Source: Candidatus Hodarchaeota archaeon
GTDB lineage: Archaea > Asgardarchaeota > Heimdallarchaeia > Hodarchaeales > Hodarchaeaceae
Reading direction: 5' to 3'
DNA length: 64,000 bases
Assembly: GCA_016840035.1 (NCBI GenBank)
Contig: JAEOTC010000086.1
Coordinates: 32,001-96,000, forward strand
In this document: positions 22,439 through 33,236 of the stretch, piece after piece
Position numbering within the stretch: the stretch's first letter is position 1
Layout: every line of letters starts with the position of its first letter
Notes under the pieces: model-generated
The model's database searches: none
Told to the model about the DNA's origin: nothing
The model's input: the letters and a program-made list of their open reading frames with translations, nothing else
Program-made: the position numbers and the translations under genes

Positions 22439-24298
22439 ATGATGGAAATGGATATAAATGACTGTAAGATTGTACTTTTCGATTTTTTTCAGAAAAAAAA
22501 GGCTATTCTTCTTGAAGCTCTCAAATCTGATGAAGTACAAACATTTCTTGAACCCTTAAGCGACATGACAATAATTTTTTCTGATATAAACAATATTGAC
22601 GAGCTTAAGAGTTATCTCAAAACCTTACAGATTCCAAAGGAAAATTTAAAAGATATTTTGATAGTCTTTGATCGTCCATTTCAATCTTCGTTTTCGTGGG
22701 GTTTCCAGGATAAAGAATTTGTTTTCATTCGTCTGGAGAAAGGGACAAAATTATTTCAGAAAAAGAACAGGAAAGGATTGATTGGATTAGTCATCCATGA
22801 AGTTTTACATGGTGTACAGCGTCAAAGAGGATTAGAGATCCGTTTACGAGACTCATTAGATTTTAGCTTAGATTTTTTTACTCAATTAGCAGAGGTCATT
22901 CCTCCTGAGAAATATAAACGTGAAGAAATAATATCATTTCTGAAACAAATATCTCAAGTCGCCTTGTTTGCATTGAAAGATATATTTGTTAATGTAGAAA
23001 TGATAAAAAGAGGTCTTGCTGAATGGTTGGTTATTTTCTACCAGGATGAAGTAGGATTTGGGGAAGAGATTAATATTTCTCCTCCTCAATATGAAACGGA
23101 GTTTGAAAAAGGAATCATTAAAGTAATGGATCTGAATGCATTTGCTAATGCATTCACCTATACTCTTTCATTAATCCCTATTTGGTTGCCATTCATGGTT
23201 CTGGAAACTGACTCCAAAGATTATGAATCTTCACGGAAATTAAAACACTTTATCTTTGAAGAATACTACATTAATCCTTCCTTCATAACTCGAGAAATGT
23301 GGCATATTGAAAATATCTTTCTCGCCAGCTTCTCCTTTTCTAAAAGCTTTCATCGAAAATGGTACGGTGCCATCTTCAACCTTGCACTAGAGTATTTACT
23401 TGGAGAAGATTTTCTATTCTATCATTTATTTAAGGCCACTGAACTTCTAGAAGAACTTTACATTACCGAAGAATCGGAAGAAAGAAAATCAATGGCCATG
23501 ATCCCAATTTTAAAAGCTACTTACATTTATAGACGGGAACACCTAGTTGGAATTCAAAAAAGAAATATCGAAGAATTAAATTCGAAATTGGAGCAATATT
23601 CGATCAGTAAAGACGAACTTTTAGAATTAGAGGAAGCTATTGACAGTTCAGCAGAACATTCTACCTCTCCAGCTCATATGTTTGAAAATCTTATGAAGTT
23701 ATCAATCATGATCATTTCTCGAGATCTGCGTGAAAATGTTTTTTCTGGAGAGAATTTGAAGTTCAAAGTATTCAGTCGAACGATCCTTTCTCTCTTACAG
23801 GCAATTAACTATCTGGGAGACGAATGCGATGATCAATATTACCATACCGTCCGTCTAGGGGTAAAAAGACTTTTACGATCCGATGATTTGTTTAAACGGA
23901 AAAGATGGGTTCTGTTACTAGAGAATTTCGCACAAAATACGATTTTCCAGGGAGAGACCGAACCTACTCAGAATGAAATTGAAGAGTTGATGTACAATTT
24001 TGATTTCTTTGAGATTCCTTTGACTAATTTCTTCATTGATCTTGGAATATCCTTCATTCAGAATATAAAGACCGTAATGAAAACTGTACCTGTCGATGAT
24101 GAGGAATTTCCATTTTTAACCGCCCAACTTATCAATATTCAACTTGGTGGACTCCAGCTTCCAATAGAAGATGATGAACATCTAAACTTGTTGTATGTTA
24201 GTAGTTTAATTGCGACTCGAGGAATTCCTTATCTCCTGATTCAAGTAATGCTTACAGCTTTTCTTCAAGCAAGAGTCCCCCCAGAGGAAGCAGAATGA
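22439..24298 (+). CDS. Hypothetical helical protein with HEXXH motif
   Basis: GLVIHEVLHG; downstream KDIFVN. Confidence 0.55.
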   Translation: MMEMDINDCKIVLFDFFQKKKAILLEALKSDEVQTFLEPLSDMTIIFSDINNIDELKSYLKTLQIPKENLKDILIVFDRPFQSSFSWGFQDKEFVFIRLEKGTKLFQKKNRKGLIGLVIHEVLHGVQRQRGLEIRLRDSLDFSLDFFTQLAEVIPPEKYKREEIISFLKQISQVALFALKDIFVNVEMIKRGLAEWLVIFYQDEVGFGEEINISPPQYETEFEKGIIKVMDLNAFANAFTYTLSLIPIWLPFMVLETDSKDYESSRKLKHFIFEEYYINPSFITREMWHIENIFLASFSFSKSFHRKWYGAIFNLALEYLLGEDFLFYHLFKATELLEELYITEESEERKSMAMIPILKATYIYRREHLVGIQKRNIEELNSKLEQYSISKDELLELEEAIDSSAEHSTSPAHMFENLMKLSIMIISRDLRENVFSGENLKFKVFSRTILSLLQAINYLGDECDDQYYHTVRLGVKRLLRSDDLFKRKRWVLLLENFAQNTIFQGETEPTQNEIEELMYNFDFFEIPLTNFFIDLGISFIQNIKTVMKTVPVDDEEFPFLTAQLINIQLGGLQLPIEDDEHLNLLYVSSLIATRGIPYLLIQVMLTAFLQARVPPEEAE

Positions 24299-24410
24299 TC
24301 CAAAACTCATATTAAAAGGAAATTCTCCCCCTCCTCACAATTAAGGAGGAGATCTCAGAGTATTTGCGCGTAAACGGTCAAGTAACTCTTAACAAAAGAA
24401 AAGGAGGAAG

Positions 24411-24577
24411 CGGCACCAGCAGGAATTTCAGTTAAAAACTGAGTGTTTTTAATTTTTGAACCTGCGACCACTCGGTGTCTGTGTTTCTTTCTTACCGAAA
24501 GATGCCAATTAACAGCCGAACGCTCTACCTCTTCAGAGATAAAGAATAATTCCTTATCCTAACTGAGCTATGATGCC
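24411..24577 (-). tRNA. tRNA-Asn(GTT) with three introns (24531-24560, 24477-24509, 24425-24454)
   Basis: Removing three BHB-like introns (30, 33, 30 nt) gives a 74-nt cloverleaf: GGCATCA/TGGTGCC, GCTC/GAGC, TTCGG-CTGTTAA-CCGAG, GCAGG-TTCAAAT-CCTGC. Confidence 0.9.
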
Positions 24578-24593
24578 TTTTCTACCAAGAATT

Positions 24594-24699
24594 TGGGCCT
24601 GGGGGGATTTGAACCCACGAACCATCCGGTTATGAGCCGGACGCTCTAACCATTTCAGAGGGGGATATCGTTAAACTCCCTAGACTGAGCTACAGGCCC
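24594..24699 (-). tRNA. tRNA with CAT anticodon, probably tRNA-Ile2; D-loop intron 24653-24682
   Basis: GGGCCTG/CAGGCCC acceptor (Ile-like), TCCGG-CTCATAA-CCGGA; 30-nt intron with TCAG/CTGA central helix. Confidence 0.85.
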
Positions 24700-24757
24700 A
24701 ATAGATGTTATTTTGTGGTGTTACCACATTATTTAAGTGATTTCAGCTATTTGATAT

Positions 24758-30776: not shown

Positions 30777-33236
30777 TCAATATATATCAGGTCGATTAAG
30801 ACATTTATAGTAGAGGTCATAAAGAAGCGTGATTAAATCATTTAGTAGATCATTATAGGTTTTAACCGAGCTTTTGATTTCCAGATAATGGCAAAGAAGA
30901 TTCCACTTTTTCCTATAATAATTCAAAAGTTCAAGTATATCTTCTTCTTCTAGGCTTACATATAATTCTTTGAAGTTATCAGTATTTAATACCCTATTTT
31001 CAATAGTGTGAATCACCCGTGAATCAATTTTTCCTGAAATTATCCGTTGTTTCGGTTTCAAGTAGTATCTAGTTTTTTTAGTTAGTAACCGAAATAATTT
31101 CATGATTGTACTAAGAGATCTGTCCTTTTGATCTATTAAATTAGTTAATTTGCCATTAACTTTGGTTGCAAACTCTTCACCTGAAAAAACAAGCATATAT
31201 AGACGAGTTATATTTTTCATTCGATCTATTTGGGACCAGTAAAACATTCTCATCTTATCTGGATGATCAAGAATAAGACAAGCCAGATCCAATATTACAC
31301 TGAAATAGATATTCTTGATGCTTGAAATTCCTTTTCCATGGCCTGAGAATGATCTAGGAGATTGGATTGTACTCCTTAAATCATAACCAAGGTTAGGAGA
31401 ATTCGCAGCAAATTCTCTAAATGGTCCTGAATCGTTTTTGGTTATCTGAATATCTTTAAAATAAGCAGATATTTTGAATTCTTCCCTTTTTATCTCATTA
31501 ATTAAATAAACAAGTGCATCTGCTTGAGTGAAAAGTTTTTTTGCGTGTTTTTTATGTTCATGCACTAGTGAATATTTCCCCCTCATTTTTTCCCAAATCT
31601 CCTTAAGTTTTATATTTGTGATTGTGTTAATTCTATGATTTGATTGATTTAGATCATGATAAATTACCTTTAACAACTGATCAATTACATTCTTATTCCC
31701 AGGTAGAATATTCTGTTTTTTCATCTGCTTTAGTCGTTTAACAACAAAGCCATTTTTATCATGTGCAAAAATAATCTCTAATTCCTTTGTCGAATTATGT
31801 TTTAGAGGTCCCTTGAGAACTTTCAACTTTGTGAGAGCTTCTTCATAGATTCTGAAATATGATGGAAAATTTGAAGGACTTCTTTCCCGAATTAGAGAAT
31901 ATAGTTTTATTATTGATTGTTTATAGTGCTCTAGGATATCAACATTGTCAAAAGAGAATTGAAAATCTGTTATTGTAAAACCAAGTCTTGACCCTCTATA
32001 ATTTAGAATACCTAATGATTCTAAGTTCTGTAGATGTTCAAAGATTTTAATTTTATTTGTAGGTAAATCTAAATTAGAAAGTATCTTCACAACAGTTTTA
32101 TGAATTTTAGTGCTCTGTAAAGTCCTTATTCCTGAAATACCGGTGAAGTTGCTTTCATTATCACAGTACATCCTTCTAATGACAGAATAGACAATCCATT
32201 CTCTTATTAATCTCTTAATCTCGATTTTACGGCCAGTGTTACCTCTGCCTGAAAGATTTACACAGGAGGTAACTATTCTATTATTAAATAGAAATGAATT
32301 ATTACAATCCTCTTTATTTTCCACTTTCCACTTTCCTGTTACCAGATTTAAGTAGGTGTAAATCAATTCGTATAAAGATAATTTCTTGTTTCCTCCCATC
32401 CATGTACGTTCTCTTCCACTTTTTAATTTAATTTGTCGACTCTTTTTATAATCCTGATCTGAAAATTGAAAGTTAAATTTTATCTCTACTTCATAAATTC
32501 CATCTGTTTTAAATTTCAACAAGAGAGGCCTATTTAAAATCAAATTTCCCATTACCTCACGTGTTTTCTTTGAGAAAGTAATACATTCATCAGATATCTC
32601 AAATTCCAATGTTAACAACCAGTTGAAAGCGTTTTCCATTTGCAAAATCGAACAGCATGATGGTATGTTCTTCATGAAATAAGAAACATTATGGTATCCC
32701 ATTTTCAGGGCAATAAGTTCACAGGATGGATGTAAAAACTTATCAGTCTTAACTAATCGCACTATTCTTGGATTTTTTTTAAGATCGACAACGGCTTTAA
32801 CAAATAATGATATACATGTTTTATATCCATGATAAAAGTTACCTTGGGCGCAAATGGCTGACAATTTCAGAACATTGATATTTTTCAATTTAATACTATG
32901 GAACACTATGTCAAAAGAAGAATTCTCAATTTGATTCTTAACATATCTTGAGCCTGTTTTCTCATTATTTCCATTCACAACTACTGCAACTTTAATTTTA
33001 CTAAATATAACAGTTAAAGCACTTAAGAAATACTGTTCATTAAAATCGAAGTATATTTTTCCAATCCTTCCCATCTCGAAAATTAAAGCTTCAACCTTAA
33101 AATTAGACTGTTCAAATATGTACCATAATCGTGTATCAATTCCTAAATTATCCAAAGTAGACAAGTATTTTGTCATCCCATTGGATTCAAGACCTATTGA
33201 GTTATTAATAGCCAACAGGATTCCTGCTAATCCCAT
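30777..33236 (-). CDS. Large orphan basic hypothetical protein between two tRNAs
   Basis: 819-aa ORF, K/I/N-rich, no recognisable motif. Confidence 0.55.
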   Translation of the reverse strand: MGLAGILLAINNSIGLESNGMTKYLSTLDNLGIDTRLWYIFEQSNFKVEALIFEMGRIGKIYFDFNEQYFLSALTVIFSKIKVAVVVNGNNEKTGSRYVKNQIENSSFDIVFHSIKLKNINVLKLSAICAQGNFYHGYKTCISLFVKAVVDLKKNPRIVRLVKTDKFLHPSCELIALKMGYHNVSYFMKNIPSCCSILQMENAFNWLLTLEFEISDECITFSKKTREVMGNLILNRPLLLKFKTDGIYEVEIKFNFQFSDQDYKKSRQIKLKSGRERTWMGGNKKLSLYELIYTYLNLVTGKWKVENKEDCNNSFLFNNRIVTSCVNLSGRGNTGRKIEIKRLIREWIVYSVIRRMYCDNESNFTGISGIRTLQSTKIHKTVVKILSNLDLPTNKIKIFEHLQNLESLGILNYRGSRLGFTITDFQFSFDNVDILEHYKQSIIKLYSLIRERSPSNFPSYFRIYEEALTKLKVLKGPLKHNSTKELEIIFAHDKNGFVVKRLKQMKKQNILPGNKNVIDQLLKVIYHDLNQSNHRINTITNIKLKEIWEKMRGKYSLVHEHKKHAKKLFTQADALVYLINEIKREEFKISAYFKDIQITKNDSGPFREFAANSPNLGYDLRSTIQSPRSFSGHGKGISSIKNIYFSVILDLACLILDHPDKMRMFYWSQIDRMKNITRLYMLVFSGEEFATKVNGKLTNLIDQKDRSLSTIMKLFRLLTKKTRYYLKPKQRIISGKIDSRVIHTIENRVLNTDNFKELYVSLEEEDILELLNYYRKKWNLLCHYLEIKSSVKTYNDLLNDLITLLYDLYYKCLNRPDIY

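Follow-up and report, generated by a model that had tools for sequence, protein, structure and literature searches.

Can a 167-nt stretch that tRNA-detection programs pass over be a working asparagine tRNA gene, and how would the sequences that interrupt it be removed? This is the question raised by a locus in the window, as we call the whole 64,000-nt stretch of DNA analyzed here, which lies on contig C28 of a Hodarchaeales assembly (G000; 4.3 Mb, 36% G+C, 87% complete, 4% contamination). Our analysis confirms a real asparagine tRNA gene in four pieces, split by three short archaeal-type introns. The reading that we favor, at a probability of roughly 0.92, is that this is a functional Hodarchaeales tRNA-Asn gene whose three introns would be removed by an α2β2 EndA, with ligation by RtcB.

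The span given by the initial annotation, 24411 to 24577, proved exact, with the strand in need of correction: the stretch reads as a tRNA on the minus strand only, running from 24577 to 24411 of the window over 167 nt. Counting window position 24577 as position 1 of the gene, the parts are as follows.

24411..24577, minus strand: whole tRNA-Asn(GTT) gene, 167 nt, CCA not encoded, called by ARAGORN on the spliced product
24561..24577, minus strand: exon 1 (gene positions 1-17), tRNA positions 1-17, with the acceptor 5' strand, U8, the D-stem 5' strand, and the start of the D-loop
24531..24560, minus strand: intron 1 (gene positions 18-47), 30 nt, in the D-loop at 17/17a
24510..24530, minus strand: exon 2 (gene positions 48-68), tRNA positions 17a-37, with the rest of the D-loop, the D-stem 3' strand, the anticodon stem 5' strand, and GUU
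24477..24509, minus strand: intron 2 (gene positions 69-101), 33 nt, at the canonical site 37/38
24455..24476, minus strand: exon 3 (gene positions 102-123), tRNA positions 38-59, with the anticodon stem 3' strand, the variable loop, the T-stem 5' strand, and T-loop UUCAAA
24425..24454, minus strand: intron 3 (gene positions 124-153), 30 nt, in the T-loop at 59/60
24411..24424, minus strand: exon 4 (gene positions 154-167), tRNA positions 60-73, with the T-stem 3' strand, the acceptor 3' strand, and discriminator G73

Introns account for 93 of the 167 nt (56%), in keeping with the earlier statement that more than half of the gene is intronic. When the four exons are joined by scripted excision, a 74-nt RNA results that ARAGORN accepts as tRNA-Asn(gtt) with a full cloverleaf, the canonical product that had been foreseen. 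It has stems of 7, 4, 5, and 5 bp, with GUU in an anticodon loop of 7 nt, and it retains U8, A14, G18G19, U33, U54-U55-C56, A58, and G73, with a T-loop of UUCAAAU. G73 and the anticodon are identity elements for asparagine. The boundaries of intron 1 (within a repeated AGG) and intron 2 (within a repeated A) are ambiguous, the equivalent cuts yielding an identical mature RNA. Before splicing, ARAGORN makes no tRNA call for this gene or anywhere else in the 64-kb window, and Rfam cmscan, at the gathering score and also up to E=10, leaves the unspliced gene undetected, its sole match in the window being a tRNA-Met. Both programs miss the gene because three introns cut it into four, and the expectation that standard scanners can overlook it therefore held for the two.

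The strongest support for the parse comes from orthologous loci. A DNA search of 40 relatives located this locus in another 19 genomes of the genus, and a search with ribosomal protein L6 added two more loci, for a total of 22. The order S8, L6, tRNA-Met, tRNA-Asn, and convergent orf619 is kept in 20 of the 20 loci from the DNA search. All three introns are present in 10 of the 22 genomes (gene length 166-167 nt), introns 1 and 2 in two and introns 2 and 3 in one (135-136 nt), and intron 2 alone in six and intron 3 alone in one (104-106 nt). Two genomes (L027 and L032) have an intron-free gene of 74 nt, joined exactly at the predicted junctions. Counted singly, intron 1 occurs in 12, intron 2 in 19, and intron 3 in 12 of the 22 loci. 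Alleles without intron 1 join as AGTT^AGGTA and alleles without intron 3 as TTCAAR^TCCTGC (the caret marking the junction). As the exons abut at the predicted junction wherever an intron is absent, the splice sites are tested independently of any motif, and the positions and lengths originally proposed for the three introns (30, 33, and 30 nt at 17/17a, 37/38, and 59/60) are borne out by both the parse and these junctions.

Across 20 to 22 loci the exons are near-invariant, while the introns diverge freely. Exon 4 is invariant in 20 orthologues, as is exon 1 except at position 5, where a U-G pair becomes C-G. All 21 cloverleaf pairs form in every one of the 20 aligned orthologues, with two-sided compensatory changes at anticodon-stem pairs 28:42 and 29:41. 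Within the splice motifs, the 12 central-helix pairs all form wherever the intron is present (100% of cells in the aligned orthologues), whereas only 33 to 50% of cells are paired in a control in which partners were slid by 1 to 3 columns. The central helix of intron 2 is paired in 19 of 19 loci, with alternation between G-C and G-U and between U-A and U-G. Two-sided changes occur in seven inner-helix pairs, against about 3.3 in shuffles; the inner helix of intron 1 shows compensatory changes among orthologues, and in intron 3, 9 of 12 loci have G-C as their first inner pair, and two-sided changes are found at five inner pairs. A contig from an independent metagenome assembly covers all three introns and differs at four positions, all inside the intron-1 hairpin, two of them forming a compensatory 28/32 swap. 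Judged from these alignments, the structure is far beyond chance in its cloverleaf pairing, its central helices, and its intron-free junctions.

The same patterns bear on the possibility that the gene is a decaying pseudogene, inactivated by its insertions, and that another tRNA-Asn, undetected or unassembled, does the work. Near-invariant exons next to freely diverging introns, compensatory stem changes, and 4-bp central helices kept in every intron-bearing orthologue all argue against decay, as does the occurrence of the three-intron form in at least 10 species, including the chromosome-titled record CP070665.1. In its favor, the assembly is 87% complete, so a second tRNA-Asn could have been missed, and a transcript of the gene was not found: two metatranscriptome runs share words with the region and neither covers tRNA-Asn; in the first run, one contig from a relative (about 93% identity) covers just tRNA-Met and the sequence upstream of it, and the second run contributes nothing. 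A further point in its favor is that the bin holds a second copy. When the complete assembly was searched by BLAST with the spliced sequence, this gene and one on contig C105 were the only matches. An intact tRNA-Asn, which the initial annotation had treated as the competing possibility, was not found by this search in the 87%-complete assembly; the sole other copy carries introns 2 and 3, without intron 1, and is probably foreign.

The 7.3-kb contig C105 (C105:1-2082) begins within another tRNA-Met, itself interrupted by an intron at 37/38, followed by the tRNA-Asn and an orf619 homologue. The latter shares 55% protein identity with the window copy, and at the DNA level C105 matches the locus of species G013 at 90% identity. 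Because of this divergent orf619 and G013-like DNA, and in agreement with the 4% contamination of the assembly, the contig is probably contamination from a co-binned congener. A second paralogue is less likely, given the Met-Asn-orf619 synteny together with the same two identity values. The two introns and the foreign appearance of the C105 copy also count against decay. We consider decay highly unlikely and the three-intron tRNA-Asn gene almost certainly functional.

The splice motifs can be placed into the context of a functional gene. The central helices, 4 bp each, are UCAG/CUGA in intron 1, CUGU/ACAG in intron 2, and UUCA/UGAA in intron 3, and each is flanked on either side by a 3-nt bulge, just as first described; the predicted cut falls after the second bulge base and restores the mature tRNA. 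In each case one strand is provided by the exon, CUGA of intron 1 pairing with D-arm UCAG (tRNA positions 12-15), ACAG of intron 2 with anticodon-loop CUGU (positions 32-35), and UGAA of intron 3 with T-loop UUCA (positions 54-57). The surrounding helices differ between introns. Intron 1 has a 5' bulge UU^A (the caret now marking the cut), a 10-bp inner hairpin (h'), and a 3' bulge AG^A, with an exon-side helix (h) of 1 bp only. In intron 2 the 3' bulge AC^A is closed by the anticodon stem (h of 5 to 6 bp), while the 5' bulge UA^A is without an adjacent helix (h' of 0), an internal 6-bp hairpin being present. In intron 3 the 3' bulge AU^U is closed by the T-stem (h of 5 bp), and at the 5' bulge AA^A an A-C mismatch precedes an inner helix of 7 bp. 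As a set, the introns fall outside the strict hBHBh' definition, which requires both h and h' to reach 2 bp or more directly beside the bulges. The motif of intron 3 is near-canonical. As one flanking helix is deficient in each of the other two, intron 1 is relaxed and HBh'-like and intron 2 relaxed and hBH-like, which are recognized members of the wider BHB family. The 4-bp helices and bulges of the initial annotation thus stand, with the correction that introns 1 and 2 fall short of a full bulge-helix-bulge. The precursor folds with a z-score of -6.0 relative to shuffles, and the fold containing all three motifs lies at -49.9 kcal/mol, compared with a computed minimum of -56.6 kcal/mol, a difference of 6.7. 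As the three motifs do not overlap, the predicted structure fixes no order of removal.

With intron 1 nearly devoid of an exon-side helix and intron 2 of an adjacent intron-side helix, cleavage would depend on an enzyme of broad specificity, and the genome appears to provide one. It contains two tRNA_int_endo genes. Both lie on C112, the α gene in an ORF that covers 64004-64258 and the β-like gene in one that covers 32711-32971. The 182-aa EndA α subunit matches the A. pernix EndA α chain (3p1z_B, E of 4.8e-42), keeps the catalytic Tyr/His/Lys, and has an RKPK sequence that aligns to the A. pernix loop with K44/R46, K39 and K41 being the aligned residues. The second, β-like protein of 210 aa has Ser in place of the catalytic His, as expected for a structural β subunit. 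A gene for RtcB is also present. The gene content suggests that the host has an α2β2-type EndA with a CSL/L1 (crenarchaeal-type specificity) loop and an RtcB ligase. This is in line with the published account of an α2β2 EndA with the L1 loop in Asgard archaea (PMC5829648). For A. pernix EndA, experiments have shown that the specificity loop, including K44, enables the enzyme to cut D-loop and BHL introns (PMC3241643). As the host α subunit has a loop of the crenarchaeal type, it would be expected to accept introns 1 and 2 despite their relaxed motifs.

It can be asked whether at least one insertion is instead removed, or tolerated, by a route without EndA, be it another nuclease or an enlarged D-loop in which intron 1 is kept. 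The relaxed motifs at introns 1 and 2 and the position of the three-motif fold above the computed minimum would be in line with this, and D-arm insertions have been reported to form canonical motifs only about one-third of the time (2026 preprint, 10.64898/2026.10.13.758758). On the other side, a perfect 4-bp helix with 3-nt bulges is found at each site in the register that restores the mature sequence of intron-free orthologues, and the EndA α loop is of the kind shown to permit D-loop and BHL cleavage. In tRNA, G18 and G19 contact the T-loop. Retention of intron 1 would place a 30-nt hairpin in the D-loop and break these contacts. A route of this kind is in our view very improbable for any of the three introns.

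The pathway that we propose with α2β2 EndA would then run as follows. The tRNA-Met and tRNA-Asn would probably be transcribed as one precursor, in which three local structures would each present a 4-bp helix between two 3-nt bulges. The heterotetrameric α2β2 endonuclease would cut after the second base of each bulge, RtcB would join the four exons, and the ends would be finished by RNase P, RNase Z, and a CCA-adding enzyme. Transcription, cleavage and ligation, removal order, and aminoacylation are all steps that we infer from sequence.

The surroundings of the gene, listed below, are compatible with such a precursor.

24594..24699, minus strand: tRNA-Met(CAT), Rfam RF00005 at 53.7 bits, 16 nt upstream of tRNA-Asn
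24727..24737, minus strand: candidate archaeal TATA-like element cacTTAAATAA, 27-37 nt upstream of tRNA-Met, read from the sequence
24391..24410, minus strand: T-rich tract, candidate terminator, directly 3' of tRNA-Asn and T-rich in most orthologous loci
22439-24298, plus strand: orf619, 619 aa, convergent with tRNA-Asn

The spacer between tRNA-Met and tRNA-Asn is 14 to 17 nt in 19 of the 22 loci, and the two genes probably share one transcript. The promoter and terminator would be assigned to the elements listed, the candidate promoter element TTAAATAA upstream of tRNA-Met being conserved in the five nearest species only. The tRNA-Met has a 30-nt intron of its own (24653-24682) at D-loop 17/17a, whose central helix, UCAG/CUGA, is shared with Asn intron 1. 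Orthologues of this tRNA-Met have 0, 1, or 2 introns, in the D-loop and/or at 37/38. Its T-stem includes one non-standard pair, 49:65. The protein encoded by orf619 has no Pfam match, and all 20 loci recovered by the DNA search encode it at this position, with 50 to 83% identity.

Intron load across the genome was estimated with a home-made tRNA census, in which acceptor and T-arm anchors with optional inserts were followed by motif-guided excision and an ARAGORN check; where central helices contain mismatches, the boundaries that it assigns are heuristic. Including tRNA-Met, it comprises 34 tRNA genes, nine of them uninterrupted, 17 with one insert, five with two, and three with three. By this rough count the load is at least 1.06 introns per tRNA gene, a minimum estimate, as many isoacceptors are still absent from the census and a gene becomes harder to find the more it is interrupted. 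The evidence points to a Hodarchaeales genus that is at least moderately intron-rich. Besides tRNA-Asn, the genes with three intervening segments in the census parse are the following.

C112:91951-92116, plus strand: tRNA-Thr(GGT), three inserts
C233:5094-5288, plus strand: tRNA-Phe(GAA), three inserts

With at least these two further genes, the three-intron tRNA-Asn is not unique in this genome. The 59-nt D-loop insert of tRNA-Phe(GAA) may be two introns. A T-loop intron of 28 to 36 nt, at or next to 59/60, is present in seven tRNA genes, namely, tRNA-Asn and those at C14:7540-7671, C28:93031-93132, C28:107080-107182, C109:712-849, C112:91951-92116, and C233:5094-5288. Each of the seven introns contains a hairpin and terminates at its 3' end in (T)GAAA(N), and their interiors look unrelated. 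Two other entries of the census have unusual ARAGORN labels after splicing: a CTA (amber) anticodon at C184:61714-61821 (minus strand) and a TTA/TCA anticodon at C71:6373-6507 (plus strand), the latter of which may be the tRNA-Sec, its intron boundary having been set wrongly.

Placed alongside known systems, the gene adds a well-supported case to a phenomenon that is itself not new, since Asgard tRNA genes with many interruptions have been reported before. The earliest three-intron tRNA genes came from Thermoproteales, where three was given as the maximum (PMC4033280), and the initial annotation framed them as mainly a feature of that group. This framing is outdated, as the host is an Asgard archaeon and multi-intron Asgard genes were reported in 2018, 2024, and 2026. 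The placement of the host in the Hodarchaeales is supported by ribosomal protein L6, encoded beside the tRNA genes, whose closest relatives lie in Candidatus Hodarchaeota or Heimdallarchaeota records such as B3_Heim and CP070695. Kaneta et al. (2018) described multiple-intron tRNA genes and incomplete tRNA sets in Asgard archaea (PMC5829648), and Valentin-Alvarado et al. (2024) found 92 to 95% of tRNA genes interrupted in Atabeyarchaeia and Freyarchaeia, more than half of them with several introns (PMC11291895). The preprint of Goswami et al. (2026) reports up to five introns per gene and D-arm insertions that are systematically missed (10.64898/2026.10.13.758758); for several Heimdallarchaeia lineages, a value of less than one intron per gene is given (2026 preprint, 10.64898/2026.10.13.758758). 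The present gene resembles these published cases in its short introns, often several per gene and often at non-canonical D- and T-arm sites, in D-arm inserts that are missed, and in an α2β2 EndA with L1. It differs in its host, the published focus being on Atabeyarchaeia and Jordiarchaeia/Freyarchaeia (PMC11291895 and 10.64898/2026.10.13.758758), whereas here it is Hodarchaeales, with at least about 1.06 introns per gene, and in that one orthologous Asn gene has from 0 to 3 introns among congeners.

For Thermoproteales, the work of Sugahara et al. (2007, 2008), as outlined in PMC4033280 and PMC4090602, describes a similar arrangement of up to three BHB or relaxed introns at D-, anticodon-, and T-arm sites. 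These organisms also resemble the Hodarchaeales host in having an α2β2 EndA with the crenarchaea-specific loop, although they belong to another phylum, Thermoproteota, and sequence-similar introns there are reported to have spread across tRNA species by transposition. Here, by contrast, introns at the same site of different tRNAs share, by eye, little beyond the bases forced by exon pairing. A eukaryotic nuclear tRNA gene likewise has three introns, which interrupt the same three arms; it relies on eukaryotic splicing machinery, and nothing points to a common descent of its introns with those of the archaeal Asn gene.

The distribution of introns among orthologues also gives insight into their turnover. 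Within the genus, the intron-free state and five of the seven possible combinations are seen (2; 3; 1+2; 2+3; 1+2+3). A tree built from three proteins (S8, L6, and the C-terminus of orf619) has an unresolved backbone, with 5 of 20 branches well supported, so that shallow clades alone are resolved. On this tree, intron 1 requires at least 5 changes, intron 2 at least 2, and intron 3 at least 6; by our own reasoning, about two changes per intron suffice if weak branches are collapsed. Mixed states occur inside well-supported clades, L006 and L007 having three introns and L008 lacking intron 3 in one, and L017 having three introns and L019 intron 3 only in another. Intron turnover within the genus is therefore real. 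Tentatively, it is possible that the spread of combinations reflects recent and repeated gain or loss, and that Hodarchaeales are richer in introns than the published Heimdallarchaeia census suggests. Transposition of introns between tRNA genes was considered and rejected, as the shared 3' ends at the same site (CTCTGAA, TGAAA) are largely forced by pairing with conserved exons and the interiors are unrelated by eye.

The advances made here are modest and consist of an orthologue series with 0 to 3 introns that validates the junctions and of evidence that the genus is at least moderately intron-rich. In practical terms, where the introns go unrecognized, this genome and at least nine related three-intron genomes appear to be without tRNA-Asn, which would lead to wrong inferences on Hodarchaeales annotation, completeness, or codon usage. 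The Hodarchaeales are the Asgard group placed closest to eukaryotes, and in eukaryotes the counterpart of the Asgard α2β2 endonuclease is the Sen complex. A 0-to-3-intron series at one syntenic locus, with exact validation of junctions independent of motif, provides material for the study of intron turnover and of the substrate range of this endonuclease. If the combinations do reflect recent gain or loss, the locus would be an unusually clean natural experiment on the arrival or departure of archaeal tRNA introns.
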